The position numbers and the translations under genes are program-made. 32,000 nt of DNA from Methylophaga frappieri (GTDB taxonomy: Bacteria > Pseudomonadota > Gammaproteobacteria > Nitrosococcales > Methylophagaceae), in the NCBI RefSeq assembly GCF_000260965.1, contig NC_017856.1, forward strand, positions 930,001 to 962,000. The letters are read 5' to 3'. This document shows, piece by piece, positions 3,856-32,000 of the stretch. The notes beneath the pieces are model-generated. The model was not told the origin of the DNA. It searched no databases and saw nothing but the letters and a program-made list of their open reading frames with translations. How positions within the stretch are numbered: position 1 is the first letter of the stretch; every line of letters starts with the position of its first letter.

Positions 3856-5264
3856 AAATCGCCATCACCATAATCTTGATAATAGGCAGGGGCAAAGTTT
3901 TCAAACCGGGTGTATTTACCCTGAAAAGTCAGCGCGACGGTCCCAATCGGGCCATTCCGCTGTTTACCAATAATGATCTCCGCTTTACCTTTATCTGCCG
4001 AGTCCGCGTTATACACTTCATCGCGATAAATAAAGACAATCACATCGGCATCCTGCTCTATCGCGCCAGATTCACGCAAGTCCGACATTACCGGCCGTTT
4101 ATTTGGTCTTTGCTCCAGAGAACGGTTCAACTGTGACAACGCAATCACCGGGACATTCAGCTCTTTGGCGAGTCCTTTTAATGACCGGGAAATTTCAGAA
4201 ATTTCTGTTGCTCTGTTTTCGGCCTGACGTCCCTGACTTCCCGACTGCATCAGCTGTAAATAATCAACGATAATGAGGCTCAAACCATGTTCGCGTTTAA
4301 GCCTTCTTGCCCGGGCACGCAATTCTGTGGGGGATAAACCACCGGTATCATCGATAAATAACGGCGCATCATTGAGCAGTTGGATGGCCGAAGTCAGCCG
4401 TGGCCAGTCTTCATCGTTGAGTTTACCGGTCCGCAGACGATGCTGATCAATTCGCCCCAAGGAAGAGAGCATCCGCATGGCCAGAGAATCTGCCGGCATC
4501 TCCATGCTGAATACCGCAACGGGCTGCTTGGCTTGGATGGCCGCATTTTCTGCCAGATTCATGGCAAAAGTGGTCTTGCCCATAGATGGCCGGCCAGCAA
4601 CAATAATCAGGTCAGCCGGTTGCAACCCTGAGGTTTGCTCATCAAAATCGACAAAGCCAGAAGGCAGGCCGGTAACGCCACTGTCTTGTTCAAAAAGCTC
4701 ATCAATCCGATTCACAACAGAGCTGAGCACTTCTTTGACCTGAACAAAGCCATTACCACGACGAGCGCCTTTTTCGGCAATTTCAAAGACCTGCTTCTCT
4801 GCGTCATCAAGCAGATTCTCGCTGGTTCGACCTTCGGTACGAAACGCCATATTGGCGATGCGATTTCCAGTCTGAATTAATTGCCGCAGAATTGACCGCT
4901 CACGGACAATGTTGGCATAAGCAGCAATGTTGGCCGCGCTTGGCGTATTACGGGTTAAGGCACCGAGATAGGCAAGATCACCGACCTTGTCAAGTTCATC
5001 TCGCTGGTCATGATATTCCGCCAGCGTAACGACATCAACGGGCTGGGCCCGCTCCATCAAATATTCAATAGCACGGAAAATAAGTTGGTGATCACGCCGA
5101 TAAAAATCTTGCTCAACAACTACATCGGCAACTTGTTCCCAAGTGCTGTTATCAAGCATCAACCCACCCAGCACAGACTGTTCTGCTTCGACTGAATGAG
5201 GCGGGACCTTTAAATCCTGCGTGGCATTATCCTGAAAATCATCGGAATAATTTATTTGTTCCAC
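3852..5264 (-). CDS. dnaB: Replicative DNA helicase DnaB
   Basis: 470 aa. Has PPHSVEAEQSVLGGLMLD at the N-terminus, Walker A GRPSMGKTTF, and RecA-like C-terminal motifs (IIVDYLQLM, SQLNRSLEQR). Confidence 0.97.
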   Translation of the reverse strand: MEQINYSDDFQDNATQDLKVPPHSVEAEQSVLGGLMLDNSTWEQVADVVVEQDFYRRDHQLIFRAIEYLMERAQPVDVVTLAEYHDQRDELDKVGDLAYLGALTRNTPSAANIAAYANIVRERSILRQLIQTGNRIANMAFRTEGRTSENLLDDAEKQVFEIAEKGARRGNGFVQVKEVLSSVVNRIDELFEQDSGVTGLPSGFVDFDEQTSGLQPADLIIVAGRPSMGKTTFAMNLAENAAIQAKQPVAVFSMEMPADSLAMRMLSSLGRIDQHRLRTGKLNDEDWPRLTSAIQLLNDAPLFIDDTGGLSPTELRARARRLKREHGLSLIIVDYLQLMQSGSQGRQAENRATEISEISRSLKGLAKELNVPVIALSQLNRSLEQRPNKRPVMSDLRESGAIEQDADVIVFIYRDEVYNADSADKGKAEIIIGKQRNGPIGTVALTFQGKYTRFENFAPAYYQDYGDGDL

Positions 5265-5313
5265 AGGCAGACATCCCAGGATAGTTGGCGTTTATTAATC
5301 GATAGCACACCAT

Positions 5314-5341
5314 AACACACAGGCAAGGCTGCCTGTGTGTT
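5314..5341 (-). terminator. Perfect 12-bp stem-loop downstream of rplI (possible terminator or processing site, no U-tract)
   Basis: aacacacaggca-aggc-tgcctgtgtgtt lies 16 nt after the rplI stop on the minus strand. It is not followed by a T-run on either strand. Confidence 0.35.
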
Positions 5342-5356
5342 AGATGTCAGGCAAAT

Positions 5357-5905
5357 TTAAGCCTCTTCTTGCGCTTTTGCGATGGCTTCCTGCTCTTCAC
5401 GAGCAGCATCGCGGGCTTTTTTCGCTTCTTCAGCCGCCGCCTTCGCTGCGATTTCTGCTTCAGAAGTGATGTTCACATCAATGGTGACCAGAACATCAGC
5501 GTGCAGCTGAACGTCGATCTGGTATTCACCTGTGTGACGTAATGGTCCAGTCGGCAAGCGAACTTCGTTGCGATCCACGTCCGCCCCTTTAGCATTAACG
5601 GCATCAGCAATGTCAGCAGCTGTTACCGAGCCGAACAATTTACCTTCCACACCGGCATTAGCCATGATGCGCACATTACCCGCTGCTTTTAATTTAGCTT
5701 GACGTGCTTCCGCTTCAGCCAGCAGTTTTGCTGCTGCTGCTTCTAACTCCGCACGGCGCGCTTCAAATTTTTCGCGATTACTCTTGGTAGCCGGCAGGGC
5801 TTTGCCTTTTGGCACCAAGAAGTTACGACCAAAACCCGATTTGACGGCAACTTCATCACCCAAATTGCCTAGTCTTTGAACTTTTTCCAGCAAAATTACT
5901 TGCAT
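5357..5905 (-). CDS. rplI: 50S ribosomal protein L9 with an Ala/Glu/Lys-rich C-terminal extension
   Basis: [36 protein letters not shown] is the L9 N-terminal domain. At 182 aa it is longer than the roughly 149 aa typical of L9. Confidence 0.95.
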
Positions 5906-5928
5906 CGTTCTACCCTCATTCGCAGTGA

Positions 5929-6861
5929 TTACTGCTTTTCAATTGACTTCGCATTATCCAAAGGAAGTTTGCGAAAATTAAACCATTGTTCTGTTATACC
6001 AAACGTTGCCAATAAACTGGCCATTTGTGGCGTTACCAATACCAATAACACATACATGGCTATCAACCAGCCCATCGCTTTCTGTTTTTGTTTGACAAGC
6101 GCATGCACGATAGCAATACCTTGTAACGTAAACAGCAACAACATCACCGGTAGCATATCGGCAAGCACAGGCAGCGCATCTAACATGCCACTGATTGACA
6201 AGACCATCAAAATGGCGGTTGCCACTGCTGGAACTTTGCCAAGTTTCAGGGAGCGAAACTCTTCCCCAAATGCCCCTGGCTCATAAAGCGAGGCCTGCCA
6301 AGCACGGCCAATCAATACCGCAACAATCGCATTAAACACGATAGCTGCGGCAAACAAGCCCGTCATTACCGTCGACAAGTTGGCAAACACGGCCTCTGTT
6401 TCGGAAACGCTTAATTGCCATCCCGGCTGATCCAATAACAACGCCACGAAAGGTTGCAACGTGGTTTGCCACCAGGCTGCCGGACTCGCCACCAGCACAT
6501 GCACGGCCGCAACACCAATCAGACCTATCAGGCCCGCCGTGATTAAAGCTTTTGCCAATGAGCGACTGAAACCCAGTACCAGGGTAATCAGATACACAGG
6601 CAACCAGGACGACACAAACAGTATCACCGCCAGTAGCGGTTGACTGAATATCCAGGTTGCGGCCAAGGTAAAGACCAGCAACGCCACCAGTAACACTTTC
6701 GCGCCTTCTCGTGGCCCCGTGCGCAGTGTTGCCAGCACCAGCAACCCGCTAGCAAGATAATTCAATGGTGGCAAAAATAATGCTGTCACCGCCAAAAAAC
6801 TCGCCGTTATTGCCGCTTGCCAGCGACCCTGCATGGCAAAATCTGCCAAGTTACGCAACAT
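5929..6861 (-). CDS. Polytopic inner-membrane protein (DUF2232/YybS-like) embedded in the rpsF-rpsR-rplI operon
   Basis: 310 aa with about 8 hydrophobic helices. It lies between rpsR and rplI, where DUF2232 proteins are found in several lineages. The family call rests on context and topology only. Confidence 0.55.
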
Positions 6862-6894
6862 TTGTATAACCGTTTGGTTACCGAAATACGCTAA

Positions 6895-7122
6895 TTATTT
6901 GTGCATATCGCAATATGGCAATAAAGCCAGAAAGCGCGCACGTTTCACACAAGTCGACAGCTGACGCTGGTAACGTGCTTTGGTACCTGTAATCCGGCTA
7001 GGCACAATCTTGCCGGTTTCGGTGATGTAGTTCTTCAACAGATTTACATCTTTATAATCAATTTGCTTTACGCCTTCAGCGGTAAAACGGCAAAACTTTC
7101 TACGTCTAAAAAAACGTGCCAT
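6895..7122 (-). CDS. rpsR: 30S ribosomal protein S18
   Basis: 75 aa: [47 protein letters not shown]. Confidence 0.97.
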
Positions 7123-7148
7123 GAGTTATTCTCCTATCAACTTAAGAC

Positions 7149-7496
7149 TTAAGATGCTTGACGTTCTGTTTTTTCGTCATCTTTGCGCATCATGGGTGAA
7201 GGTTCGGTAACCGCTTCATCCATAGTCACAACCAAATGACGAATAACGGCGTCATTGAAACGAAATGCAGTCGTCACTTCATTCAGTTGTGCGACATCAC
7301 ATTCGACGTTCATCAAGACATAATGTGCTTTATGTACTTTGTTGATGGAGTAGGCCAATTGACGACGGCCCCAGTCTTCCAGACGATGGATTTGACCACC
7401 ATTACTCGTCAGCGTTTGACTGTAACGTTCGATCATACCCGGTACTTGCTCACTCTGATCAGGGTGGACCAGAAACACGATTTCGTAATGTCTCAT
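7149..7496 (-). CDS. rpsF: 30S ribosomal protein S6
   Basis: [25 protein letters not shown]... is the classic S6 N-terminus. The protein has an acidic C-terminal tail. Confidence 0.97.
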
Positions 7497-7609
7497 TTGA
7501 GCTCCTCACGGTTTAAACAGCTTTTGACCTATTGACCAAAAGCAAGGAGTTTTACCATTAACGTAAATTGTTAAGGTAATCAGACATTTTACTGCATTTT
7601 ATTGTGCTG

Positions 7610-8416
7610 TCACAAGCCACGTTGACGCGTCGCTTCAAACAAGCAGACGCCAGCGGCGACGGAAACATTGAGGCTCTCGGCCTGGCCTTGCATTGGTATC
7701 AGTACAACATCATCACAATGCTCTCGGGTTAACCGACGAATTCCCTTGCCCTCAGCGCCTAACACGATACCAAGCGGCCCCGTCAAATCTGCCTGATAAA
7801 GGTTTTTATCTGCCTCACCCGAGGTGCCAACCAGCCATATCCCATGCTGCTGCAAATCTTTTAAAACACGTGCCAGATTGGTGACTTGCACAAATGGCAC
7901 GCGCTCAGCCGCACCACTGGAGATTTTTATCGCCGTTGGCGTTAATGTCGCAGCCCGATCTTTAGGGGCAATGACAGCATGCACCCCCGCCGCTTCAGCA
8001 GTCCGTAAACAAGCGCCTAAATTATGGGGATCCTGTACCCCATCCAAAATCAGCAAAAACGGTGCCTCAGTGAGATCAGCCAGTAATGCCATTAACTGGG
8101 TTTCTGAAAGAGTTTCCAGTGGTTTGACACGTGCTACGCAGCCCTGATGCTGCAAGTCTGGAACCAGTTGTTCGAGCGCTTTACGACTAACGCGTTGCAC
8201 TGGCACTGAATGCGATGCCGCAATCGTTAGAATCGCCTCCACTCGGGGGTCATGCCGTTCGTCAGCCAGCCAGATCTCACTAACCCGGGTGACTGGTGCT
8301 TCCAATGCTGCCTGAACGGCATGGAAGCCATACAACCAAGATGACTCGCGTTCGGAATTGCTCTCAATGTTGGCCTTACGGCGTTTGGTAGGCTTCAGTT
8401 TCTTGTCCTTCAACAA
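7610..8416 (-). CDS. rlmB: 23S rRNA (guanosine-2'-O)-methyltransferase RlmB (SpoU/TrmH family)
   Basis: Has the YGFHAVQAAL N-terminal L30e-like domain and SpoU motifs (LDGVQDPHNLGACLRTAEAAG, LGAEGKGIR, SLNVSVAAG). The Lys-rich N-terminal extension makes the exact start uncertain. As drawn, it overlaps the 3' end of the upstream gene by 41 nt. Confidence 0.85.
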   Translation of the reverse strand: MLKDKKLKPTKRRKANIESNSERESSWLYGFHAVQAALEAPVTRVSEIWLADERHDPRVEAILTIAASHSVPVQRVSRKALEQLVPDLQHQGCVARVKPLETLSETQLMALLADLTEAPFLLILDGVQDPHNLGACLRTAEAAGVHAVIAPKDRAATLTPTAIKISSGAAERVPFVQVTNLARVLKDLQQHGIWLVGTSGEADKNLYQADLTGPLGIVLGAEGKGIRRLTREHCDDVVLIPMQGQAESLNVSVAAGVCLFEATRQRGL

Positions 8417-9050
8417 TCGGTTTCACAATAATCTCAACCCGACGATTCAATTGCCGTCCTGCGGCGGTTTCATTGGTCGCACGCGGCGCCAATTCACCAC
8501 GCCCCATCGGCTTGAGTCGTTCAGTAACCACACCACGCGCAGCGAAATAATCACTGACCGATCTGGCTCTGCGCTCAGAAAGTTGTTGATTATAACTTTC
8601 TGAACCGGTGCTGTCGGTATGACCGACGACATGGACGACGGTTTTTGGATATCGTTGCAACACATCGGCAACTTTATTCAATGTAGGCTCAAATGCCGGC
8701 TTTATTGCTGCACTATCAATATCAAATGATACTTCATTGGCAATATCAATTTTTAAAGACTCATCTTGAAGTTGCTGAATTTGTAACTCATTACGAGCCC
8801 GTTCATCGGCTAAGGCGGCTTCCATTTCCCGTTGCTGATTGTCCATGTAGCGGCCAACACCCGCACCAGCCAATGTGCCAACGGCCGCCCCAGCGAGAAC
8901 ACCACCTGCACCATCATCCACAGCATAGCCAATTAAAGCACCCGCAGCAGCGCCAATCGCTGCACCTGATTTAGTTTGTTTATTGGGATCATTCGTTGCA
9001 CAAGCCGCCATCGCCAAACTTATCATTGAGACCAGCATGATTCTCTGCAT
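8376..9050 (-). CDS. OmpA-family lipoprotein with a glycine-zipper segment
   Basis: The ATG at 9050 is preceded by AAGGAG. Has a lipobox (LAMAAC), a Gly-zipper (GAAIGAAAGALIGYAVDDGAGGVLAGAAVGTLAGAGVG) and an OmpA C-terminal peptidoglycan-binding domain (VVGHTDSTGSESYNQQLSERRARSV...NRRVEI). The longer ORF reaching 9176 is rejected. Confidence 0.85.
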   Translation of the reverse strand: MQRIMLVSMISLAMAACATNDPNKQTKSGAAIGAAAGALIGYAVDDGAGGVLAGAAVGTLAGAGVGRYMDNQQREMEAALADERARNELQIQQLQDESLKIDIANEVSFDIDSAAIKPAFEPTLNKVADVLQRYPKTVVHVVGHTDSTGSESYNQQLSERRARSVSDYFAARGVVTERLKPMGRGELAPRATNETAAGRQLNRRVEIIVKPIVEGQETEAYQTP

Positions 9051-9143
9051 ATCGCTTTCTCCTTTTAAAACTAAATTGCGGATTTCTGGATCCACAAGGT
9101 TTGGCTGATTATACTGATTTTCAAGTTTTCTCATTGAGACATA

Positions 9144-9665
9144 ATGCACATGGCAGACGCCTTCATTCCCATTCAAATCGCCGTACTAACGGTATCTGAC
9201 AGCCGCACAGAGGTAACTGATACCTCCGGCAAATTACTGGTCGATAGACTTCAGTCAGCCGGCCATGAATTGGCTGACAAGCGCATTGTCGCCGACGATA
9301 TTTACCAAATCAGAGCCATTGTTTCTGTTTGGATAGCCGATCCGGATATCGACGTTATTTTGACAACAGGCGGCACCGGGCTAACTGGCCGAGATGGTAC
9401 CCCTGAAGCGGTTAGTGCTTTATTCGATAAAACCATTGAGGGCTTTGGCGAGTTATTTCGGCATGTGTCTTTTGCATCGATTAAAACCTCGACCATTCAG
9501 TCCCGTGCCATTGCCGGTGTCGCAAATGGTACTTTTATTTTTGCGTTGCCCGGCTCATCCGGTGCCTGCCAGACAGCGTGGGATGACATTCTGCAATCGC
9601 AGCTGGATGCCCGTCATCGACCCTGCAATTTTATTGATTTGATTCCCCGACTTCTTGAAACATGA
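9144..9665 (+). CDS. moaB: Molybdenum cofactor biosynthesis protein B
   Basis: Collinear with the E. coli MoaB pattern: [10 protein letters not shown]...DTSG...[11 protein letters not shown]...EGFGELFR...[24 protein letters not shown]...[11 protein letters not shown]. Confidence 0.85.
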
Positions 9666-9910
9666 TTTACACCCTCTTTACGACACAAGGTTGCCATCTT
9701 TGCGAACAGGCACAAGACTTATTTGCGTTGGTTAATCAATCGAATAGTTTTACGCTCAAACTTTGTGAGATTGGCGACGCTCCCAAGCTAATCGAGCAAT
9801 ACGGTATTCGTATTCCGGTCATTCAAGCGCCAGCAGGTCAGGAGTTGGATTGGCCCTTTTCACCAATGCGATTAGAACAATTTTTGAAAGACACCTGTTC
9901 GGAACTTTAA
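9662..9910 (+). CDS. Glutaredoxin-like (DUF836) thioredoxin-fold protein
   Basis: 82 aa with a CHLC redox motif near the N-terminus (TTQGCHLCEQA). Its start overlaps the moaB stop by 4 nt. Confidence 0.65.
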   Translation: MIYTLFTTQGCHLCEQAQDLFALVNQSNSFTLKLCEIGDAPKLIEQYGIRIPVIQAPAGQELDWPFSPMRLEQFLKDTCSEL

Positions 9911-9962
9911 CCTTCATCTGCGATTCTTAATCACTAATTTTAAGCTGTGATGGAGGATCACC

Positions 9963-10847
9963 ATGCGTTTCTTGGCGATTCTTTCTTTTTTCTGTTTACA
10001 AGCAGTGAATGCCGACAATTTACCTAGCCCGCTGGGTAAACGCTACGATATTGGCGGTTATAAAATGCATCTCCACTGTCAGGGTAAAAACGGGCCTACC
10101 GTCGTGGTTGATGCTGGACTAGGTGAGGATTCATCAGATTGGCAGAAAATCGTTGATCAGGTTAGAAATACCACCCGGATTTGCGTCCTTGACCGTCCTG
10201 GCTATGGTTGGAGCGATTTTGGCCCGACGCCTCGAACAAGTGAGCGGATTGCAGGTGAAATTGAGCGACTACTCAGTTCTGCATCAATTGGCCCACCATA
10301 TTTACTGGTTGGTCATTCTTTTGGCGGCTTTAACGTGCGCATGTTCGCTGCAAGACATCCAAATCAGGTGAAAGGCATGATTCTGATTGACGCCTCGCAT
10401 GAAGAACAATTTAATCGTCTGAAAATCAGACTACCACGCCCTGAAGCGCAGCACCGTAGTGTAATCATCCTGCCAAAAGGGACCGTCGACACTTTCTCAT
10501 CGGACAAACCACAAGCGCTTAAAGAACGAAGTTTTTTTGCAGCCCGCGCTGAAATTACATCTATGTCATTAAGTGCTAAACAGGTAGGTCAATTAGCCGA
10601 TTTTCCTGAAATACCTTTGGTCATCATTAGTCGAGGTCAACCTGAATGGACGGGCGATCCTGCCTTACAATTACGTGAAAAAATTTGGATCGATTTACAG
10701 CGTGAATTGACGCACCTAACCAGCAACAGTCGTCATTTATTTGCCCACAAAAGCGGCCATGCAATCCCACAACAACAACCTCAAATCATTGTCGATACTA
10801 TTCTTGAGATGCTGGACGAAGTTCGTTTCAGTCACCCATCCGGTTAA
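9963..10847 (+). CDS. Secreted alpha/beta-fold hydrolase
   Basis: Has a signal peptide (MRFLAILSFFCLQAVNA), the nucleophile elbow GHSFGG, a downstream Asp (LIDAS) and a His near the C-terminus (SGHAIP). Confidence 0.8.
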   Translation: MRFLAILSFFCLQAVNADNLPSPLGKRYDIGGYKMHLHCQGKNGPTVVVDAGLGEDSSDWQKIVDQVRNTTRICVLDRPGYGWSDFGPTPRTSERIAGEIERLLSSASIGPPYLLVGHSFGGFNVRMFAARHPNQVKGMILIDASHEEQFNRLKIRLPRPEAQHRSVIILPKGTVDTFSSDKPQALKERSFFAARAEITSMSLSAKQVGQLADFPEIPLVIISRGQPEWTGDPALQLREKIWIDLQRELTHLTSNSRHLFAHKSGHAIPQQQPQIIVDTILEMLDEVRFSHPSG

Positions 10848-10880
10848 AACCCGTATACTGTCTAATTTTTGCGTTGAATT

Positions 10881-12032
10881 ATGACGGTTTTATACCTAGA
10901 TACACCGGTAGGACTCCTTGATTTTTGCCAGCAAATACAAAATAGCTCGTGGCTCGCTGTTGATACCGAGTTTCTGCGAGAAAAAACCTATTACCCTCAG
11001 TTATGTTTGATTCAGATTGCCAATGACGACGTTATTGCCTGTATTGATCCCTTGGCAATTGATGATCTGACACCCCTGTTTGATGTGCTTTACCAGCCGA
11101 AGATGACGCTGGTTTTTCATGCGGCCAGACAGGATCTGGAACTACTGCTGATGCATCGTCAGCAGCTACCTGACACGATATTTGATACTCAACTGGCCGC
11201 CAGTGTTCTGGGATTAGGAGAACAGGTTGGCTATGGTAATTTGGTAAAAACTGTCTTGAATGTGGATCTGGATAAAGCCCACTCCCGCACTGACTGGACA
11301 GCTCGACCTTTATCCACGGCACAGTTAGATTATGCAGCAGACGATGTTCGCTATTTGAGAAGTCTTTATCATCAAATGCAGCAAAGTCTGACAGAGCTTA
11401 ATAGAACACATTGGCTAGCAGACGATTTTGCGGCATTGTCAGACCCACAAACCTATCAAGCCGATCCGGAGACGATCTGGCGAAAAATTCGCGGTGCCGG
11501 CAAACTTAAACCTCGGCAACTGGCTAATCTACAGCAACTCGCCGCATGGCGTGAACGCAATGCGATACAACGAAATCGTCCACGTCGCTGGATATTAAAA
11601 GATGATGTGATGCTGGATTTGGCCCGTTTTGCGCCCGATAGCTTAACGAAACTCAGTCAAATCCGAGGACTGGAGCCGCGCGATATTGACCGCCATGGTC
11701 AAGCCATCCTCGACGTACTGGAAAAAGCCAGTCAAATTCCCAAAGCAGACTGGCCGGTTATGCTAAAACCTGAGCCACTCACTAACCAGCAAGAAGCTTT
11801 GCTGGATGCGTTAATGGCATTATTACGACAGTTTTGTGATGAACAAGCCATTTCACCCGCGGCGGTGGCAACACGAAAAGATATCGAAAAACTGGTCCGC
11901 GGCGAAACAACAATACCCTTACTGAAAGGGTGGCGAAAACAAATTGTTGGCCGCAAGTTACAGGCATTTTTACAGGGTAAACTGGTTATCCATGCCGATG
12001 CCAAGCAACTAATAATTAATGAGGTTGAATAA
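10881..12032 (+). CDS. rnd: Ribonuclease D
   Basis: Has DEDDy 3'-5' exonuclease motifs (AVDTEF, HAARQDLE, YAADDVRYL) followed by an HRDC-like region. At 383 aa it is typical of Rnd. Confidence 0.9.
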   Translation: MTVLYLDTPVGLLDFCQQIQNSSWLAVDTEFLREKTYYPQLCLIQIANDDVIACIDPLAIDDLTPLFDVLYQPKMTLVFHAARQDLELLLMHRQQLPDTIFDTQLAASVLGLGEQVGYGNLVKTVLNVDLDKAHSRTDWTARPLSTAQLDYAADDVRYLRSLYHQMQQSLTELNRTHWLADDFAALSDPQTYQADPETIWRKIRGAGKLKPRQLANLQQLAAWRERNAIQRNRPRRWILKDDVMLDLARFAPDSLTKLSQIRGLEPRDIDRHGQAILDVLEKASQIPKADWPVMLKPEPLTNQQEALLDALMALLRQFCDEQAISPAAVATRKDIEKLVRGETTIPLLKGWRKQIVGRKLQAFLQGKLVIHADAKQLIINEVE

Positions 12033-12916
12033 TGTCCGTTCTGATATGCGGTTCTTTTGCTTATGACAATATTATGGTGTTTCCGGACCAGTTTAAAAAC
12101 CATATTTTGCCAGACAAAGTGCATATGCTTAATGTCGCCTTTCTGGTACCTGAATTACGTCGTGAATTTGGCGGCTGTGCCGGTAATATTGCCTATAACT
12201 TGAAATTACTCGGCGATGAGCCAATCCCGATGGGATCAGTTGGGACAGATTTTAGTCCTTATGCCGACTGGTTGGACAAACATGACATCAATCGCCAGCA
12301 TGTTCATGTCAAGCAAGGGCACTATACCGCGCAAGCCTACATTACTACCGATATTGACGATAATCAGATAACGGCATTTCATCCAGGCGCCATGAATCTG
12401 GCTCACGAAACCTCAATTCATGAAGCCAAGAACATCAAATTGGCAATTGTTGCCCCGGATGGTCGCGACGGCATGGTTCAACACGCAAAAGATCTGGCAG
12501 CGGCCGGTATTCCATTCATCTTTGACCCGGGTCAGGGTCTGCCGATGTTTAATGGAGAAGAGTTACTTCAATTTACCGAACAAGCCAGCTACTTGGCTCT
12601 GAACGATTATGAAGCGCAGTTATACATGAACCGGACGGGCTTATCTGAACAAGAAATCGCTGAACGGGTTCAAGCCTTAATCATTACCCGCGGCGCACAA
12701 GGTTCGACAATTTATGCGGATCGCGAAAAAATTGATATTGCCTGCCAAACCGCAACACGGGTTGTTGATCCGACGGGTTGTGGTGATGCCTACCGGGCTG
12801 GTCTTTTACACGGCATTCTGCATGGCAAGGACTGGCATGAAACCGGGCGTATTGCCGCCATGATGGGCGCCTTGAAAATCGCACAGCACGGTACTCAAAA
12901 TCACACGCTTGATTAA
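12032..12916 (+). CDS. PfkB-family carbohydrate/nucleoside kinase
   Basis: Has the GG motif (FGGCAGNIAYNL) and the C-terminal PfkB signature DPTGCGDAYRAG. The substrate cannot be assigned from sequence. Confidence 0.8.
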   Translation: MSVLICGSFAYDNIMVFPDQFKNHILPDKVHMLNVAFLVPELRREFGGCAGNIAYNLKLLGDEPIPMGSVGTDFSPYADWLDKHDINRQHVHVKQGHYTAQAYITTDIDDNQITAFHPGAMNLAHETSIHEAKNIKLAIVAPDGRDGMVQHAKDLAAAGIPFIFDPGQGLPMFNGEELLQFTEQASYLALNDYEAQLYMNRTGLSEQEIAERVQALIITRGAQGSTIYADREKIDIACQTATRVVDPTGCGDAYRAGLLHGILHGKDWHETGRIAAMMGALKIAQHGTQNHTLD

Positions 12917-25660: not shown

Positions 25661-26227
25661 ATGAACGCTTTGTTTAAAAGCTTGTTAACAGGGTTACTTC
25701 TGCTTCCCGCAGTTGTGTTTGCTCATGGTGCTAGCCGGTTACAAGTAGAAGAAACGATTCTCATAAATGCCTCCCCCGAAACGGTTTGGGCTGCCATTAA
25801 AGACTTCGACAGCTTGCATAAATGGCACCCAGCTATTGAAGCAACTGAAGCAACCGGTGGGAATGAAAAAGGGGCAACCCGTGTCCTGACACTGAAAGGT
25901 GGCGCCACTATTAACGAAACACTCAAGAAATTTGATGACGCATCTATGACCTACATGTATCAAATTGATGAGATTAGTGTTGTTGATCAAATTGAATATG
26001 AAGGGCATTCATTCGATGTCCCGGCTGTGCCTGTAAGCAAATATAAGTCTTGGGTAACGGTTGAAGCCGAGGGTGATCGGACCAAAGTCACTTGGTTAGC
26101 AAAGTTTTTCCGGGCATACACTGGAAAACATCACGAACCAGAGTCATTAAATGACGATACCGCCATCACTGCGATTAGTGAGTTTTATAAAAGCGGTTTG
26201 CAGAACCTAAAATCCAGCGTGGAATAG
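25661..26227 (+). CDS. Secreted SRPBCC (START/Bet v1-like, polyketide-cyclase fold) protein
   Basis: Has a signal peptide (LLTGLLLLPAVVFAHG). The blocks PETVWAAIKDFDSLHKWHPAI ... GATRVLTLKGGATINETL ... YMY are typical of SRPBCC proteins. It resembles the MxaD-type periplasmic proteins of methylotrophs, but that is not established here. Confidence 0.65.
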   Translation: MNALFKSLLTGLLLLPAVVFAHGASRLQVEETILINASPETVWAAIKDFDSLHKWHPAIEATEATGGNEKGATRVLTLKGGATINETLKKFDDASMTYMYQIDEISVVDQIEYEGHSFDVPAVPVSKYKSWVTVEAEGDRTKVTWLAKFFRAYTGKHHEPESLNDDTAITAISEFYKSGLQNLKSSVE

Positions 26228-26244
26228 GTTAATCTACTTGGCAA

Positions 26245-26276
26245 TAAAAAAGGCGTCTTAGGGCGCCTTTTTTATT
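26245..26276 (+). terminator. Rho-independent terminator; last recognisable host feature before the island
   Basis: aaaaaaggcg-tcttagg-gcgcctttttt is followed by 'at'. It lies immediately 3' of the SRPBCC gene. Confidence 0.8.
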
Positions 26277-26450
26277 TCACCATGACTCCAGCCCGGTACT
26301 GCGCTGGACTACGCCAAGGCTTGATACAGCAGGTTTATCAATGACTTAGGCGAGTTCATCATATGCCGGTGCTTTCCGAAACTTGACCTGACTTTCCCTC
26401 TACTGGCCCCTAGAAGGCTCCTGGGAACCGGGTCTTTCCAAGGAGTCATC

Positions 26451-27653
26451 ATGGCAAAAATCAAACTCACCAAGTCCGCTGTCGATGCGGCACACCCCCA
26501 GGCGCAGGCCGTCGAACTCCGGGATACGTTGGTTCCCGGCTTCTTGTGCAAGATTACCCCGTCGGGCCGCAAGGTGTTCATGCTCCAGTACCGGACGAAC
26601 GCTGGCGAGCGCCGCAAGCCCGCCTTGGGTCAGTACGGGGAACTGACCGTCGAACAGGCCCGTTCGCTCGCGCAAGAATGGCTGGCCCAGGTACGCCGGG
26701 GTGGTGATCCCGGCGCAGCCAAGACGGAAGCACGCAAAGCGCCCACCGTCGAAGAGTTGTGCAAGAAGTTCATGGAGGACCACTCCAAGAAGCGCAACAA
26801 GCCCAGCACCCGAGTCGGCTATCAAGGTGTCATCGACCGCTGCATCATCCCGTTGTTGGGCCGCAAGAAGGTCCACGACGTGAAGCGGCCTGACATTGCC
26901 GGACTGATGGAAAAGCTTTCCTACAAGCAGACCGAGGCGAACAAGGCGTTCAGCATCCTGCGCAAGATGTTCAATTTGGCTGAGGTGTGGGGCTATCGGC
27001 CTGACGGCACCAATCCCTGCCGCCATGTCCCAATGTTCCCTGCCGGCAAGTCCACCCACCTTATCAGCGACGAGGACATGGGAAAACTTTTCCGGCAGCT
27101 CGACAAGATCGAGGCCGAGGGGCTGGAGAACTACGTCATCCCGTTGGCGATCCGCCTGCAATTCGAGTTTGCCGGCCGCCGTGGCGAAATCGTCTCGCTC
27201 GAATGGGAATGGATCGATCTGGAAAACCGCCGCGTCGTCTGGCCTGACAGCAAGACCGGCGGTATGTCCAAGCCCATCAGCGAGGAAGCCTACCGGCTGC
27301 TTTCGACGGCGCCGAGGCAGGAAGGCAATCCTTACGTCCTGCCGTCGCCGCGCCATCCAGGGCAACACCTGACCACGGGCGAGTATTACGGCGGCTGGAG
27401 CCGTGCGCTCAAAGCGGCGGGGGCAACGCATGTGGGGACGCACGGCATCCGCCACCGCTCGGCGACCGACATTGCCAATTCGGGTATCCCGGTCAAGGTC
27501 GGCATGGCCCTGACGGCGCACAAGACCGTGGTGATGTTCATGCGCTACGTCCACACCGAGGACAAGCCCGTGCGGGAAGCCGCCGAACTGGTGGCGAATC
27601 GACGCAAGTCGGTCGTCAGCATGCATCAAGAACCGAAAGAGGTGACCGCATGA
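26451..27653 (+). CDS. int: Tyrosine-type site-specific integrase (P4-like, N-terminal DUF4102 arm-binding domain)
   Basis: AAGGAG RBS. The N-terminus is LTKSAVDAA...ELRDTLVPGFLCKITPSGRKVFMLQYRTNAGERRKPALGQYGELTVEQAR (DUF4102 pattern). The catalytic region carries R (FAGRRGEI), HGIRHRSAT (HxxR) and the Tyr in MFMRYVH. Confidence 0.92.
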   Translation: MAKIKLTKSAVDAAHPQAQAVELRDTLVPGFLCKITPSGRKVFMLQYRTNAGERRKPALGQYGELTVEQARSLAQEWLAQVRRGGDPGAAKTEARKAPTVEELCKKFMEDHSKKRNKPSTRVGYQGVIDRCIIPLLGRKKVHDVKRPDIAGLMEKLSYKQTEANKAFSILRKMFNLAEVWGYRPDGTNPCRHVPMFPAGKSTHLISDEDMGKLFRQLDKIEAEGLENYVIPLAIRLQFEFAGRRGEIVSLEWEWIDLENRRVVWPDSKTGGMSKPISEEAYRLLSTAPRQEGNPYVLPSPRHPGQHLTTGEYYGGWSRALKAAGATHVGTHGIRHRSATDIANSGIPVKVGMALTAHKTVVMFMRYVHTEDKPVREAAELVANRRKSVVSMHQEPKEVTA

Positions 27654-27712: not shown

Positions 27713-27791
27713 CTCAGTGGCCATCACCGCCTGCGTATCGTACTAAGCACTGGAAAAGTGTGCCCGTTTCGGGTATAGTTTGAAGGTCAAG

Positions 27792-28175
27792 ATGACGCGC
27801 ATCCTCAAACGAAAGGATTTTGCGCGGTGGCAGGCGGGCGAAAAGCTGTCCGATGCCGCCTTGTGCAAAGCGGTTCAGGAGATGGAAAGCGGTCTGATTG
27901 ACGCGGACTTGGGCGGCTTCCTTTACAAGAAACGGGTTGCCCGCCCTGGTGGTGGCAAGAGTGGCGGCTACCGCACGTTATTGTCGGCCCGGATCGGCAG
28001 CCGCTATGTGTTCCTGCATGGGTTCCCCAAGAGCGACAAGGCGAACATTACGCAGGACGAGAAGAAGGCACTGCAATTCGCCGGCAAGGTGTTCCTGGAA
28101 CTGTCCGCCGAAGCATTGTCGAAGGCGTTGCAGTCAGGCGTGTTATTGGAGGTGCATTGTGAGCAAGATCATTGA
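27792..28175 (+). CDS. RelE/HigB-like type II toxin (PF06296-type RelE family)
   Basis: RILKRKDFARW...LIDADLGGFLYKKRVARPGGGKSGGYRTLLSARIGSRYVFLHGFPKSDKANI contains the GKSGGYR motif and the 'yGF.K..k.Ni' block typical of this toxin family. The ATG at 27792 is preferred over the TTG at 27780. Confidence 0.8.
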   Translation: MTRILKRKDFARWQAGEKLSDAALCKAVQEMESGLIDADLGGFLYKKRVARPGGGKSGGYRTLLSARIGSRYVFLHGFPKSDKANITQDEKKALQFAGKVFLELSAEALSKALQSGVLLEVHCEQDH

Positions 28176-28461
28176 ATCCCTGCGTGGCGATCTGGCCGCG
28201 CTCCACGAAGCGGGAGCGATCGGCAAGGTAACGATGCGCGAGTTCGACGCAATCTGCCCGCCGCCGGTGCGGGAGTTCAGTGCTTTCGATATCAAGCGGC
28301 TGCGTGAAGCCTTGAAGTTTAGCCAGCCGGTGTTCGCTCTTCATCTACACACGTCGGCCTCGACCGTGCGCAAGTGGGAACAAGGCGAAACCCATCCCAC
28401 GGGGCCAGCGCTCAAACTGCTCAACGTCATCGCCGACAAGGGCCTGCAGGCCATCATCTGA
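28159..28461 (+). CDS. XRE-family HTH antitoxin (NadS/HigA-like)
   Basis: The GTG at 28159 overlaps the toxin 3' end by 17 nt. IKRLREALKFSQPVFALHLHTSASTVRKWEQGETHPTGPALKLLNVI is the HTH + 'WEqG...PsGpA..LL' signature of antitoxins paired with PF06296 toxins. The N-terminal part of the track ORF (27898-28158) is an out-of-frame overlap with the toxin and is not coding. Confidence 0.8.
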   Translation: MSKIIESLRGDLAALHEAGAIGKVTMREFDAICPPPVREFSAFDIKRLREALKFSQPVFALHLHTSASTVRKWEQGETHPTGPALKLLNVIADKGLQAII

Positions 28462-28483: not shown

Positions 28484-29302
28484 TTGGCGACGCGAATTAC
28501 CCCTTTCAACTCACAGCATCTTGAAGCCGCCTGCCGCGTGCTCGCCGATACCGAACGCGGTCTGAGCGGTACACAGATCGAGCGGCTGCTGCAGGAAATC
28601 GAGGTTGCCGACACGTCGCCCGGCATGACAAAGTGGAAGCGGTTGTTCAATGCGCTGGCCGGTGCGCAGAACCACCACCAGATCGGCAACCATCTCATCA
28701 TGTTCATCAACCGCGCGATGAACCCGGTGAACTACGCCCGCGATCCCGCGACGTTCGCTTGGCGGCGCGACGAACTCAATGTCGTCCTTGCCTTCTCCGG
28801 TTTCTACGTGCGCGATGACGGCAAGGTTGCTCACGCCGATAAGGCCACGACGCTTGATGCCGCCCGCGCCCGCGCGGGACGACTCAAGGCCGCACTGGAA
28901 AGCCGCGTCGTCCATGCGGAAGTGCTGAACTACTGCCGCGCCGAGTTGCTGGAGGAAAACTACTTCCATGCCGTGTTCGAGGCAACGAAAGGTGTTGCGG
29001 AGCGGATTCGCCTGCTGTCGGGCCTGAACGGCGACGGCGCGGACTTGGTGAACAAGGCATTCGCAGGCCAGCAACCCGTTCTCGCCTTGGGACCGCTCAC
29101 CACCGAGTCCGAAAAGAGCGAGCAGAAAGGCTTTGCCAACCTGCTGATCGGCTTATTTGGCGCCGTGCGCAATCCGCTGGCCCATGCGCCCAAGACGAAT
29201 TGGCCCATGTCCGAACAGGACGCACTGGACATCCTGACGCTGGTATCGCTGATTCACCGCAAGCTGGATGGCACCACGAAATTAGCGGCCGTATCGCCGT
29301 AA
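28484..29302 (+). CDS. TIGR02391 (Hypoth_Ymh) family protein
   Basis: TTG start with a GAGGGAGA RBS 6-7 nt upstream. The C-terminal domain is YFHAVFEATKGVAERIRLLSGLNGDGADLVNKAFAG...SEKSEQKGFANLLIGLFGAVRNPLAHAPK...EQDALDILTLVSLIHRKL, which carries the Ymh signature including RNP.AH. The N-terminal half is typical of full-length members (about 270 aa). Confidence 0.75.
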   Translation: MATRITPFNSQHLEAACRVLADTERGLSGTQIERLLQEIEVADTSPGMTKWKRLFNALAGAQNHHQIGNHLIMFINRAMNPVNYARDPATFAWRRDELNVVLAFSGFYVRDDGKVAHADKATTLDAARARAGRLKAALESRVVHAEVLNYCRAELLEENYFHAVFEATKGVAERIRLLSGLNGDGADLVNKAFAGQQPVLALGPLTTESEKSEQKGFANLLIGLFGAVRNPLAHAPKTNWPMSEQDALDILTLVSLIHRKLDGTTKLAAVSP

Positions 29303-29315
29303 GTGAGAGACAGGA

Positions 29316-30599
29316 ATGGACGAGGCGATCGTTGTCTTCTCTCGAAAAGGGATTTTCCAGACCACGATTGCCGCGCGCGACGTTCGCAGCCGGGAACATG
29401 CGCGCAAGCTGTGGCCCTTGGTGTCTCCAGGCGCAGAGCGCCAGATGGTGACATGGGTCAGCCCCTCCTTTGAAAGCGGGAAGCTGCGTCGGCGATCCCA
29501 TTTCCGCGTACTTCCTGCCCAGCACACCTTTAACCCCAAAGCGCACTTCGACGATGAAGAAGCCAGCCGATGGCGCGCCGTGCAGGAAAGTCCTGAACAC
29601 CGGCGGGCGAAAGAACTTGTCGCGGCCGAACTCTCACGACGTTTGAATGCCGGGCTTGCGATGCCGTGGGCGTTCAAGGATATGGATGCGTCGGACTATC
29701 CGCTGGAAGGCAACTTGTTGCTCGGCGCCGACCAGGTGGCAACCGAGCATCCCCTGGAGACGCCATTCGGCAGCAAATTCCGGCTCGACGTTGCCGTGCT
29801 CGGCCCCCCGGTCCAGGCTGAACCGATGGTGCTGGGCGGCGTTGAAATCGAACTCGGCCACGCCTTCGACGGGCGCAAGGCTCTTATCGGGAAGTCGCTC
29901 GGATTCCCGCTCATCTCCATCGACATCACCGAGATGACGCTGGACGAACTCACGCCCGAGTGGGCACGGCAGGTATTGACTGCGACCACGCGGAGCCACG
30001 AGCAAGGACGCCGGCAGACCTACATCTATCTCCACGACCTGCTGTACCCCCTCTACGCGCAATTGCCGGCGTTTCTGGACGACGAGCAGCGCCATCAGTT
30101 CCTTGTGTTTGCCGACGATGAGACCCTGAACAAGTTGGTGCGCTGGATGAACCTGCTCGCCGAAAAGCTGGAGTACCCGAAGGGTACGGTCGCCGTTGCC
30201 TTGGTCAATGGCAAGAACGAACAGTCGCGCAAGATGCTGGAACGCGCGGGACAAGTCGTTGGCCCCGACTGGAGCGAGTTCAACGGCCAGCGATGCCTAC
30301 GACTGACCCTGCCGCGTCCCAAAGGCCCGGCGGATCTCCAGGCCCATCGCTTCCACATGACGATGGCGCGCATCCTGCTGTCGCACACTGATTCGCTCGT
30401 TGGCTACAAGTATTGCAACGGCGTAGACAACCACCACCCTGAAGAAGACGTGTGGGTTGCGCATCGCTGGATCGCCGACTTGAAAACCCATACCCAGCAT
30501 CGCGTCTTGCCGAAGCGGCTGGCTGAACCGATCAACAGATTGATCGCGGTGGTTTCGGACCTGCATCGCAATCACGCGGCTGCCAGCCAAGAGGCGTGA
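29316..30599 (+). CDS. Hypothetical protein with a CoiA-like PD-(D/E)xK nuclease core and an unassigned C-terminal half
   Basis: Starts 13 nt after the Ymh gene. Residues about 60-200 contain SHF...ESPEHRRAKELVAAEL...EHPLETPFGSKFRLDVAVLG...GGVEIELGH...GFPLISID. This parallels CoiA-family blocks (HFAH, ESxxHxxxKxxL, E...RPDV, IEIQxS, GxPVxWI). Residues about 215-427 are not recognisable. Confidence 0.6.
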   Translation: MDEAIVVFSRKGIFQTTIAARDVRSREHARKLWPLVSPGAERQMVTWVSPSFESGKLRRRSHFRVLPAQHTFNPKAHFDDEEASRWRAVQESPEHRRAKELVAAELSRRLNAGLAMPWAFKDMDASDYPLEGNLLLGADQVATEHPLETPFGSKFRLDVAVLGPPVQAEPMVLGGVEIELGHAFDGRKALIGKSLGFPLISIDITEMTLDELTPEWARQVLTATTRSHEQGRRQTYIYLHDLLYPLYAQLPAFLDDEQRHQFLVFADDETLNKLVRWMNLLAEKLEYPKGTVAVALVNGKNEQSRKMLERAGQVVGPDWSEFNGQRCLRLTLPRPKGPADLQAHRFHMTMARILLSHTDSLVGYKYCNGVDNHHPEEDVWVAHRWIADLKTHTQHRVLPKRLAEPINRLIAVVSDLHRNHAAASQEA

Positions 30600-30676: not shown

Positions 30677-31465
30677 TCAGTCCGTAGTCGGTTTTGAGGC
30701 TCTTTTCCGCGGGGCCGAAGAAGGCAAAGACGGCAAGCACTCAAACAAGCGTTCTGCATAGACGAACCCCATCCGTCTGACCGCGCCCTGATCGAAATAC
30801 AGCAGCCAAGCGGCAAGTAATGCCAGCGAAATGAGCAGTGTCAAGCCTGCGGCAAGCCCCGGATCGGCAAGGTGCTCTAGGTTAAAATGAGGAGGTACTA
30901 CCTGCAGAATCTTTGCAATCAGCAATCCGTAGACGATGCCCAGGAGGCACGACACGATGCCGGCAGGCTTCATTGCCAGCATATTGCGGTGAAATCCGTA
31001 GGCGATGTTCTCTTTCAGCAAGAGCTGCTTGTTGGAACGCGTGAGTTCGCGAAGCCGCTTTGTGGCGCCAACGTAGATGTCGTCTGCCTTGTCAGGGCTT
31101 GCTGATTCTTCTTCTGCCGTTGGCATGGCGATGCCCAGCTTGGCCGTGATCGCCGTGTGGTAGCGCTGCTTGCTGACACCATCGAGAAACTTGTCGCGAT
31201 GGCGTAACGCGATGGTTGTCGGCATACCGCCCCACCTTGCAACCAGGATCTCTTCAAGCTTCTTCCCGCGCCCGCGAGCTACGCTCGCAAGCGCATAAAT
31301 GGCACCGCAGCCACCAAGCAAGCCGATCACGCCTGTAAGTACCGGGTGCTTTGCGCCGTAGACGCACAACAAAGGAACGAGCAGCGGTAACGCTACAAGA
31401 AGTCCTGGGATTACGCGCGCCTTGCGCTCATAGGGGTCTTTGACCAGTTCAAAAATAGTTGTCAT
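30677..31465 (-). CDS. 4-TM membrane protein of unknown family (candidate effector downstream of the WYL regulator)
   Basis: 262 aa. TM pairs lie at about residues 17-62 (VIPGLLVALPLLVPLLCVYG / VLTGVIGLLGGCGAIYALASV) and about 166-225 (AGIVSCLLGIVYGLLIAKIL / AAGLTLLISLALLAAWLLYF), flanking a soluble helical region of about 100 aa. The start lies 6 nt after the WYL gene stop. Confidence 0.65.
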   Translation of the reverse strand: MTTIFELVKDPYERKARVIPGLLVALPLLVPLLCVYGAKHPVLTGVIGLLGGCGAIYALASVARGRGKKLEEILVARWGGMPTTIALRHRDKFLDGVSKQRYHTAITAKLGIAMPTAEEESASPDKADDIYVGATKRLRELTRSNKQLLLKENIAYGFHRNMLAMKPAGIVSCLLGIVYGLLIAKILQVVPPHFNLEHLADPGLAAGLTLLISLALLAAWLLYFDQGAVRRMGFVYAERLFECLPSLPSSAPRKRASKPTTD

Positions 31466-31471
31466 GGGCGT

Positions 31472-32000
31472 TCAGCTTTGGGCCGACAAGGCATCAATAT
31501 AGGGTTGAATTTCATCGCGGTTCTTTAAAGTGATCTGCTGCGCGAGAGGGTCGGGTGCTTCCTTGGTATGCAAGCCCAAACGCCTCAGCGTGTAATACAA
31601 AAACGCTTGGCGGCATGGAAGTTTGACCTGTCCGTCTTCCATTCCATAGTCCAACTCCAGGACTCGTTTCTTGGCAGCGGGCAAATCGGGGTGCGGTGCA
31701 AGCACCAGCGTCAAGAGAGTTTGCCAGTGCGAATCTTGGCTGGCGTCCACTTGGCTCGCTTCGAAGCCGTCGATGCGCAGGATTCGGGCGAGGACGAAAT
31801 CACTGAAGCGCTGGCGTTTGTGGCAAAACGCGCGCATGTGCCAGCGAAAACCGTCATTACCAAGGGCGTGGGGAGACAGCAGACGAACCGATTCGTCCAT
31901 GGACGTCATGGACTGGTAGCTCACCCAAATGGCTTCCTGCTGCCGAATTGCCCGGACCACTGCTTCGACGGTCTGTTCATTGATCGTGCGCCAGGGGGAC
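31472..32000 (-). CDS. WYL-domain transcriptional regulator (BrxR/CapW/PafBC-like), 5' end outside the window
   Basis: The frame is open to the window edge (SPWRTINEQTVEAVVRAIRQQEAIWVSYQSM...). WYL-domain pattern: IWVSYQSMTS...RLLSPHALGNDGFRWHMRAFCHKRQRFSDFVLARI. This is followed by a C-terminal extension (WCX-like). The N-terminal HTH is presumably beyond 32000. Confidence 0.75.
   Translation of the reverse strand, partial: SPWRTINEQTVEAVVRAIRQQEAIWVSYQSMTSMDESVRLLSPHALGNDGFRWHMRAFCHKRQRFSDFVLARILRIDGFEASQVDASQDSHWQTLLTLVLAPHPDLPAAKKRVLELDYGMEDGQVKLPCRQAFLYYTLRRLGLHTKEAPDPLAQQITLKNRDEIQPYIDALSAQS

Follow-up and report, generated by a model that had tools for sequence, protein, structure and literature searches.

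We examined a 32,000-nt stretch of Methylophaga frappieri DNA (contig NC_017856.1, positions 930,001 to 962,000; hereafter the window), the right end of which carries two closely spaced minus-strand genes: a WYL-domain regulator gene and a gene for a small protein with four transmembrane segments (TM; we refer to the protein as 4TM). The regulator reading frame enters from beyond base 32000 and ends in a TGA at 31474–31472. The segment 31472–32000 holds its 3′ part (codons ∼125–300 and the stop; Pfam WYL, E = 1.1e-12), which belongs to a CapW-family wHTH-WYL-WCX regulator of 300 aa, and the winged-helix N-terminus lies outside the window. A 6-nt spacer (31471–31466, ACGCCC by direct reading of the sequence) separates this stop from the ATG of the 4TM gene at 31465, and the 262 codons of the latter run to 30677. 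This agrees with the coordinates in an earlier model-made annotation of the same letters (hereafter the sequence-only reading), which had called co-transcription almost certain. Because no intrinsic terminator and no promoter-like site was found in the junction, co-transcription is plausible, and the two genes probably form one transcription unit. The UniProt entries for the exact 4TM and WYL proteins are I1YGP8_METFJ and I1YGP9_METFJ.

The 4TM protein (30677–31465, minus strand) has hydrophobic segments at aa ∼18–36, 41–63, 166–187, and 202–224 around a helical domain of ∼100 aa, as seen both in hydropathy and in an AlphaFold2 (AF2) model. In window coordinates, all on the minus strand, these correspond to a first TM hairpin (31277–31414; AF2 helices at aa 11–36 and 41–78), a cytoplasmic helical domain (aa 64–165; 30971–31276; delimited by alignments, with a pLDDT of ∼90), a second TM hairpin (30794–30970), and a conserved C-terminal cytoplasmic helix (aa 226–242; 30740–30790; AF2 model and alignments), followed by a variable basic tail. 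Positive charge is found at both termini and on the central domain, a pattern that fits an N-in protein whose central domain is cytoplasmic. Hydropathy, charge, and the AF2 model agree with the two hairpins flanking a cytoplasmic helical domain that the sequence-only reading had described.

In a profile search, 2577 cluster representatives of this family passed E ≤ 1e-3, with lengths of 235–285 aa in nearly every case, and 461 passed E ≤ 1e-30. Records of the exact protein occur in 1678 assembly-collection blocks, and conservation across the family starts at the annotated ATG. Taken together, the exact records, the family representatives, and the conserved N-terminus indicate a genuine gene rather than a random open reading frame (ORF). 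Family members share an invariant N-terminal cytoplasmic motif, DPYxRxAR..P (aa 10–20), and a set of invariant positions in the central domain: R64, G67, WGGxPTT..LRH (78–89), E120, D128, Y131, R143, and ENxxYGFxRN (152–161). Y236, A237, and L240 are conserved in the C-terminal helix.

The protein had no match in Pfam (the best, to DUF6232 at E = 0.039, is below threshold), NCBIfam, or PADLOC, and a PADLOC search with 50 diverse relatives gave nothing meaningful, with one member hitting an unrelated restriction endonuclease model. Foldseek found no significant neighbor of the AF2 model (pLDDT 80) in PDB or BFVD. The sequence-only reading had proposed a comparison with SLATT and other effector families and had named a transporter or biogenesis family match as a refutation; no such family gave a significant match in Pfam, PADLOC, NCBIfam, or Foldseek. 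We rejected a likeness to MotA/TolQ/ExbB, as it extends to topology only, a shared outline of TM segments, cytoplasmic helices, and TM segments: The best PDB matches had E-values of 0.15–0.5 and TM-scores of 0.19–0.26, and there is no MotB/TolR-type partner. Escherichia coli genomes gave no match, and viral contigs searched with the 4TM family pattern yielded no relatives.

We could read the gene content past base 32000 because identical copies of the surrounding element, an integrative and conjugative element (ICE) discussed below, extend beyond the window end. Comparison loci were retrieved through the exact 4TM protein, and ten genomes were read. Following the sequence beyond the window, as the sequence-only reading had advised, completed the regulator and uncovered a divergent operon. 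The full regulator gene (9092–9994 in copy L001) encodes 300 aa with WHD_BrxR, WYL, and BrxR_CTD domains. The protein matches the CapW structures 7tb5 (E = 1.7e-71) and 7tb6 (Sm CapW; E = 7e-70), with an alignment over residues 14–293, and matches the BrxR structure 7t8k over nearly its full length (E = 2e-41). By these matches the protein is a CapW orthologue, and the BrxR/CapW-type assignment made from its 3′ part alone was correct.

The sequence-only reading had taken the 4TM gene to be the regulator's only downstream cargo. This is not supported: 88 bp from the capW start, on the opposite strand, an operon begins with a gene for a metallo-β-lactamase-fold (MBL-fold) protein, MBL1. Its gene order, the same in all ten identical copies, is MBL1, E2-E1-JAB, MBL2, DUF6685, and then RadC and DUF932. 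MBL1 (397 aa; L001 7810–9003, minus strand) overlaps the start of the E2-E1-JAB gene, which encodes a fusion of 751 aa with PF14457 (Prok-E2_A; E = 5e-56), PF00899 (ThiF), and PF14464 (Prok-JAB). MBL2 (356 aa; Lactamase_B; L001 4442–5512) matches the PADLOC model PDC-M48B with E = 2.6e-154, and the DUF6685 gene, the last of the MBL operon (L001 3233–4249, minus strand), encodes a protein without a PADLOC match. We considered whether the 397-aa gene encodes a CD-NTase, which would make this a CapW-regulated CBASS, and rejected this possibility, as the protein has the MBL fold; no nucleotidyltransferase was found in the locus.

In the published account (PMC9122588), a capW gene sits upstream of its target operon, on the other strand, and the protein occupies a palindrome that covers the −10 site. 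Repressors of this family are described as dimers on a ∼20-bp palindrome, with derepression by single-stranded DNA. The region between capW and MBL1 contains a −35/−10-like pair (TAGACG, 17 nt, TATAGT), and an imperfect 17-bp palindrome, CGTATAGTTAATGTACG, overlaps the −10-like TATAGT, which is suggestive only. The same region also holds a 7-nt inverted repeat with arms 47 nt apart. The whole block, from DUF6685 through MBL2, E2-E1-JAB, and MBL1 to the divergent capW and 4TM genes, recurs among other neighbors, with a nucleotide identity of ∼91%, on a dozen plasmids of Acinetobacter. In locus L011 from plasmid pACI-55cf (NZ_CP026415.1), for example, it occupies 3371–12185 and adjoins ImmA/IrrE+HTH (HTH, helix-turn-helix) and a DUF4011 helicase-like gene.

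We surveyed the neighborhoods of the 4TM family in a scan that was seeded by patterns and confirmed by tblastn, with one genome per species, keeping the best 80 loci; 82 nonredundant loci were counted. ORFs were called mechanically, neighbors were clustered, and hidden Markov models were built from the clusters. One neighbor cluster (C3) proved to be the antisense of MBL1, an artifact of shadow ORFs in high-GC DNA that affected the automatic choice of genes in several loci. Both this survey and the one from the MBL1 side described below were seeded by short peptide patterns and limited to the best 80 loci each, and all fractions are approximate. The 4TM loci span Proteobacteria, Acidobacteriota, Bacteroidota, Cyanobacteria, Actinomycetota, Planctomycetota, and Firmicutes, along with one archaeal metagenome-assembled genome.

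A full-length MBL-fold gene stood alongside the 4TM gene in 75 of the 82 loci, usually within one operon, and the remaining seven were contig ends or decayed copies; the 4TM gene is therefore no orphan, as the sequence-only reading had termed it. The commonest arrangement (43 loci) is an MBL gene followed by an adjacent 4TM gene on the same strand, with no E2-E1-JAB gene within 6 kb. MBL1, E2-E1-JAB, and 4TM follow one another in 22 loci, six loci have both MBL genes and E2-E1-JAB (e.g., L074, in the order MBL1, E2-E1-JAB, MBL2, 4TM), and three have the divergent layout of the window. Pfam confirmed Lactamase_B and E2_A/ThiF/JAB in distant representatives of the partners. The two MBL paralogues keep to their places: MBLs adjacent to 4TM were MBL2-like in 42 of 48 cases, and those upstream of E2-E1-JAB were MBL1-like in 29 of 29. 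The closest relatives of the ICE MBL2 (56%–59% identity; L036, L053, and L057) lie immediately upstream of 4TM genes of their own. No residue convincingly separated E2-E1-JAB-linked from unlinked 4TM forms; K166, present in 100% versus 74%, is a lead only.

A WYL regulator, in any arrangement, was present in just 10 of these loci. The neighborhood survey had been proposed as a way to refute the sequence-only reading, and it largely refutes that reading: The homologues mostly do occur without a WYL regulator (72 of 82), and their companions are almost always MBL-fold hydrolases. We can now weigh that reading as such, namely, a stand-alone unit of a WYL repressor and a single orphan membrane-disrupting, abortive-infection effector. 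The 6-nt gap and the probable transcription unit speak for it, as does the company that CapW/BrxR regulators keep with many defense systems. It is nevertheless most improbable, given the far tighter association of 4TM with MBL than with WYL genes. Moreover, wherever a WYL gene is present it borders the whole MBL system, and neither survey contained a WYL–4TM locus without a nearby MBL gene (in L032 the MBL gene is 140 nt downstream). Because the MBL gene is the near-constant neighbor and the regulator an infrequent one, we regard 4TM as a relocated core component and not as the stand-alone cargo of a regulator. By gene order, the WYL–4TM pair is a lineage-specific rearrangement of a named multigene system and not a new two-gene system.

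Type I restriction–modification (R–M) genes repeatedly flank the MBL–4TM pair (HsdM-, HsdS-, and HsdR-sized clusters C4, C6, and C7, at L016–L020, L022, L023, L029, L069, and others). At loci such as L016–L020 they are genes 2–5 upstream of the pair, and at least 8–10 of 107 neighbor proteins matched type I methyltransferase models. Separately, at three loci from Bacteroidales and Oscillospiraceae (L081 3087–4364, L085 1934–3223, and L089 3477–4763), genes of ∼429 aa and ∼196 aa follow 4TM on the same strand, and in L089 a second MBL1 and E2-E1-JAB pair comes after them; a Latescibacterota locus (L072 9338–10609) has the ∼429-aa gene only.

The survey from the opposite side was a metagenome scan with an MBL1 alignment. 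Among its best 80 loci, which are enriched for relatives of the ICE copy, 36 were well flanked on both sides. A divergent CapW-like gene was found in 28 of these 36 loci and a 4TM family gene in 22. Of the 14 loci without 4TM, eight carry a second family (F2) and three carry a third (F3), in the same slots, such that a small membrane protein of one of the three families is present in 33 of 36. F2 proteins (202–235 aa; L113 6263–6970, L142 1972–2619, L148 6333–6980, L166 11493–12143, L173 10757–11434, and others) share the outline of two TM segments, a cytoplasmic part, and two further TM segments, and F3 is a TM family of 150–177 aa (L125 6493–7026, L126 1263–1787, and L175 11616–12068). Neither family had a PADLOC match, and F2 had none in Pfam. 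The alignment of F2 with the 4TM cytoplasmic domain is collinear and not significant (hhalign E = 0.0097, probability 4%).

The enzymes of the system keep their motifs. HPDxDH, GDA, and PHH(C/G) motifs are kept in both MBL paralogues (HPDxDH...PHHCSW in the ICE MBL1), and the E2 His/Cys, E1 GxGxxG, and JAMM motifs are invariant. NCBI names MBL2 as "ComEC/Rec2 family" and MBL1 as "metallohydrolase." The MBLs of the locus match effector-type MBLs in PADLOC (LmuA at E = 2e-19, RTasMBL, and Avs1a), with MBL1 itself matching the MBL-type models LmuA/RTasMBL at E = 1e-12.

The two paralogues differ in their C-terminal tails. MBL1 ends in a terminal Gly in 17 of 30 proteins and has [H/A]G within the last eight residues in 24 of 30. 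A typical ending is ...IGRQPLAHG, with the pattern ...QP(L/H)xHG and sometimes 1–5 extra residues; the ICE copy ends in ...PMPHG-AS. Such a tail looks like a ubiquitin-like conjugation handle that would need trimming by JAB. MBL2, on the other hand, has a terminal Gly in 2 of 48 proteins and an acidic aromatic tail (PFxxxVE-D/E) in 33 of 48, with the variants PLPFSNEVEAWD, PFYxxVEDDD, and YPEEQES (e.g., L020 6874–8001 and L001 4442–5512). By this tail, MBL2 may dock on the cytoplasmic domain of 4TM.

These features bear on what the 4TM protein does within the system. A membrane-acting effector role, as the sequence-only reading expected from the architecture, is possible. We lean toward it because the membrane slot is operon-terminal and can be filled by any of at least three families, much as TM effectors are exchanged in CBASS and Pycsar, and we give an effector, as opposed to an anchor or a sensor, a little under an even chance. 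The rival within the same system is that the MBLs are nuclease effectors, which 4TM, as an anchor or sensor in the membrane, would hold, position, or activate, perhaps where phage DNA enters, comparable to KwaA of Kiwa or ZorAB of Zorya. We consider this alternative, though doubtful, nearly as likely. The intact ComEC-like HPDxDH/HH site, the name of MBL2, and the PADLOC matches to effector-type MBLs would all fit it; both the docking-type tail of MBL2 and the Gly tail of MBL1 could attach an MBL to a membrane protein; invariant Arg and other polar residues abound in the 4TM cytoplasmic domain; and 4TM is conserved equally with and without E2-E1-JAB. Against this stand the at least three unrelated-looking families that fill the membrane slot, which is more typical of exchangeable effectors, the description of MBL as a "signaling enzyme" in a text from the Corbett lab (PMC11601596), and the absence of any sequence or fold match between 4TM and KwaA or MotA/ZorA-type proteins.

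The operon is recognizable as one already described. Operon type 6a of Iyer, Burroughs and Aravind (2006) combines E2-E1-JAB with an MBL, "usually with two genes" (PMC1779556). MBL pathways are related to type II CBASS (PMC11601596; PMC13373217), and CapW, CapK, and CapS regulators mark immune operons (PMC9122588; PMC13373217). According to a review (PMC13276650) and to PMC11601596, van den Berg et al. 2024 reported anti-phage activity of a Pseudomonas aeruginosa 6A-MBL system, and the names 6A-MBL and "MBL pathway" come from that study and from the Corbett lab. Our locus shares with 6A-MBL the triple-module E2-E1-JAB protein beside a specialized MBL-fold protein, the location on mobile elements or in defense islands, the occasional CapW- or CapK/S-type regulator, and an MBL1 C-terminal Gly consistent with conjugation. 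It differs in that the described operons usually have two genes, whereas nearly all well-flanked loci in our MBL1 survey include a small TM gene; the ICE locus also adds the second paralogue MBL2 and DUF6685 and has 4TM displaced to the regulator side.

Comparison with other systems sharpens this picture. As in type II CBASS, the C-terminus of a core enzyme would be conjugated by E2-E1 with JAB as the antagonist, the regulator is of the CapW family in a back-to-back layout, and the last gene encodes a small multi-TM protein; a "type I-like" two-gene MBL form, without E2-E1-JAB, exists as well. Unlike in type II CBASS, a hydrolase of the MBL fold takes the place of the nucleotidyltransferase as core enzyme, and a cyclic-nucleotide logic is not evident. 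The CBASS and Pycsar effectors S_4TM, S_2TMBeta, SLATT, and Cap14/15 also differ from 4TM, which had no match to them in Pfam or PADLOC. The regulator resembles CapW/BrxR proteins in its 300 aa, its three domains, and its divergence from the regulated operon, but it serves an MBL system and not CBASS or BREX, and it probably has the 4TM gene in its own transcription unit. The ICE MBL2 matches PDC-M48B of the PADLOC candidate PDC-M48 almost end to end, whereas no protein of the locus matched PDC-M48A, and none of the 50 members of the 4TM family searched had a counterpart in PADLOC v2. Finally, Kiwa KwaA and Zorya ZorA likewise pair a small multi-pass inner-membrane protein with a cytoplasmic DNA-acting partner. 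Unlike in those systems, PADLOC found no KwaA match, there is no DUF4868 (KwaB) neighbor, and the partner is an MBL and not KwaB or ZorB-D.

On this evidence, we favor the reading in which a 6A-MBL defense system, carried in the integrase-proximal cargo of a Tn4371-type ICE, has its regulator encoded by the WYL gene and its membrane subunit by the 4TM gene, with somewhat better than even confidence in the whole. Its parts differ in strength: The 4TM protein is very probably a component of the 6A-MBL system, and the system is likely to act against phage. In the mechanism we propose, the 4TM gene, normally found at the operon end (after MBL2 or after MBL1 and E2-E1-JAB), would have moved behind capW in this lineage, such that both arms of a single CapW-controlled divergent promoter region would express the system. 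CapW would repress until bound to single-stranded DNA arising from infection or DNA damage. The JAB domain would trim the two residues after the ...PHG of the MBL1 C-terminus, and MBL1 would then undergo adenylation and attachment to a target by the E1 and E2 domains, like the type II CBASS cyclase under Cap2. The acidic aromatic C-terminal tail of MBL2 would dock it on the conserved cytoplasmic domain of 4TM, and 4TM would then give an output at the membrane.

Several points weigh against this reading. Binding by CapW is a prediction, and the operator candidate, CGTATAGTTAATGTACG, is an imperfect palindrome. Three of the 36 well-flanked MBL1–E2-E1-JAB loci have no membrane protein. The survey fractions are approximate and derive from crude ORF calls on pattern-seeded samples of the top 80 loci. 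The many invariant polar residues in the 4TM cytoplasmic domain would be unusual for a simple pore former, and ComEC-like MBLs that resemble LmuA, Avs1a, and the DRT-associated MBL would fit a nuclease effector, which would leave 4TM as an anchor or sensor. As for novelty, the system and its regulator are already known, and the membrane component appears undescribed in the accessible literature. We found no membrane protein linked to 6a/MBL operons in that literature, which excludes the primary 6A-MBL paper (van den Berg 2024) and Ledvina 2023, and either of these may already describe the 4TM component.

A wider and more speculative proposal, which we hold only tentatively, joins these observations. 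The three membrane families (4TM, F2, and F3) would be the missing third component of MBL pathways, as output or sensor; the MBL2–4TM pair would be a "type I" MBL system; and there would be two kinds of coupling tail. The commonest form of the system would then be the two-gene module of MBL2 followed by 4TM (43 of 82 loci), spread over many bacterial phyla. MBL2 would couple by its docking tail and MBL1 by a terminal Gly made covalent through E1/E2, with 4TM a conceivable conjugation target.

The block is carried by a mobile element, one end of which we could delimit within the window. The segment 26268–32000 (5733 nt) is 100% identical, with zero mismatches, to loci L001–L004 and L007. All ten genomes have the same integrase and upstream genes, each at a different chromosomal site with different flanks. 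Near 26.3 kb, GC content steps up (∼47% before, ∼60% after), and the junction at the start of the identity to L001, TTTTTTAT (26268–26275, plus strand), falls inside the run of T residues in a terminator-like hairpin of the host (aaaaaaggcg..cgcctttttt; 26200–26300). Tn4371-family ICEs have TTTTT(C/T)AT as their target and direct repeat, and the variable ORFs after their int gene include β-lactamase-domain proteins, putative ubiquitin-activating enzymes, RadC-like proteins, and regulators (PMC2789088). Judged by its integrase, target site, and types of cargo, the terminal 5.7 kb of the window represents one end of a Tn4371-type ICE, and the setting is a mobile island rich in defense genes.

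Carriage on such elements raises another explanation, that the MBL and 4TM proteins serve not defense but ICE or DNA handling (ComEC-like uptake or processing, or entry exclusion), with CapW as a DNA-damage switch of ICE functions. MBL2 is ComEC/Rec2-like, ICEs and conjugative plasmids carry the block, and descriptions of Tn4371 treat these ORFs as plain variable cargo (PMC2789088). We consider this highly unlikely, however, since most of the 4TM family is found on chromosomal islands, in unrelated phyla and often with type I R–M genes as neighbors, and no partner with a Competence domain or an OB-fold was found. MBL2 also falls within the defense-candidate set of PADLOC, 6A-MBL is reported as phage-protective in the review cited above (PMC13276650), and regulators of the CapW, CapK, and CapS types are marks of immune operons.

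The rest of the ICE end is made up of plus-strand genes. The tyrosine integrase (26451–27653; Arm-DNA-bind_3, Phage_int_SAM_3, and Phage_integrase domains) is directly followed by a RelE(PF06296)-type toxin gene overlapping an HTH_3 antitoxin-like gene (27780–28461; Pfam domains), a probable addiction or defense module of the ICE. Next come a Hypoth_Ymh protein that matches PADLOC PD-Lambda-3_B (E = 3e-179) and a 427-aa protein (28484–30599); the pair is convergent on the 4TM gene and forms a separate module. The 427-aa gene begins 13 nt after the Hypoth_Ymh/HEPN-like gene, and its product had no family match in Pfam, PADLOC, or NCBIfam; PD-Lambda-3_A had no match among the genes scanned. We considered the 427-aa gene as a partner of 4TM and rejected it, as the two do not co-occur elsewhere and the 427-aa gene is broken on the Acinetobacter plasmids. 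An Rfam scan of 26–32 kb returned nothing, and a tRNA scan found none. The high-GC island (26.4–32 kb) also yields long antisense shadow ORFs, for example, of 409 aa opposite the integrase (26400–27629, minus strand) and of 206 aa opposite the 427-aa gene. The host part of the window (1–26267) has a GC content of ∼47%–50% and contains TauE, LysR, and SRPBCC-like genes.

MBL pathways join type II CBASS and type II Pycsar as the third branch of Cap2-type E1–E2 conjugation systems. No effector or conjugation target is named for them in the accessible literature. In the surveys, the MBL enzyme almost always came with a gene for a small membrane protein, and the pair proved far more widespread without the ubiquitin-like module. 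The 4TM family is thus an annotation gap, left as "hypothetical protein" by Pfam, PADLOC, and NCBIfam. Two concrete candidates result, namely, the 4TM gene itself and a complex or conjugate of MBL with 4TM. As many Pseudomonadota, both clinical and environmental, share the ICE at 100% identity, the system would be a widely shared cargo of phage resistance.

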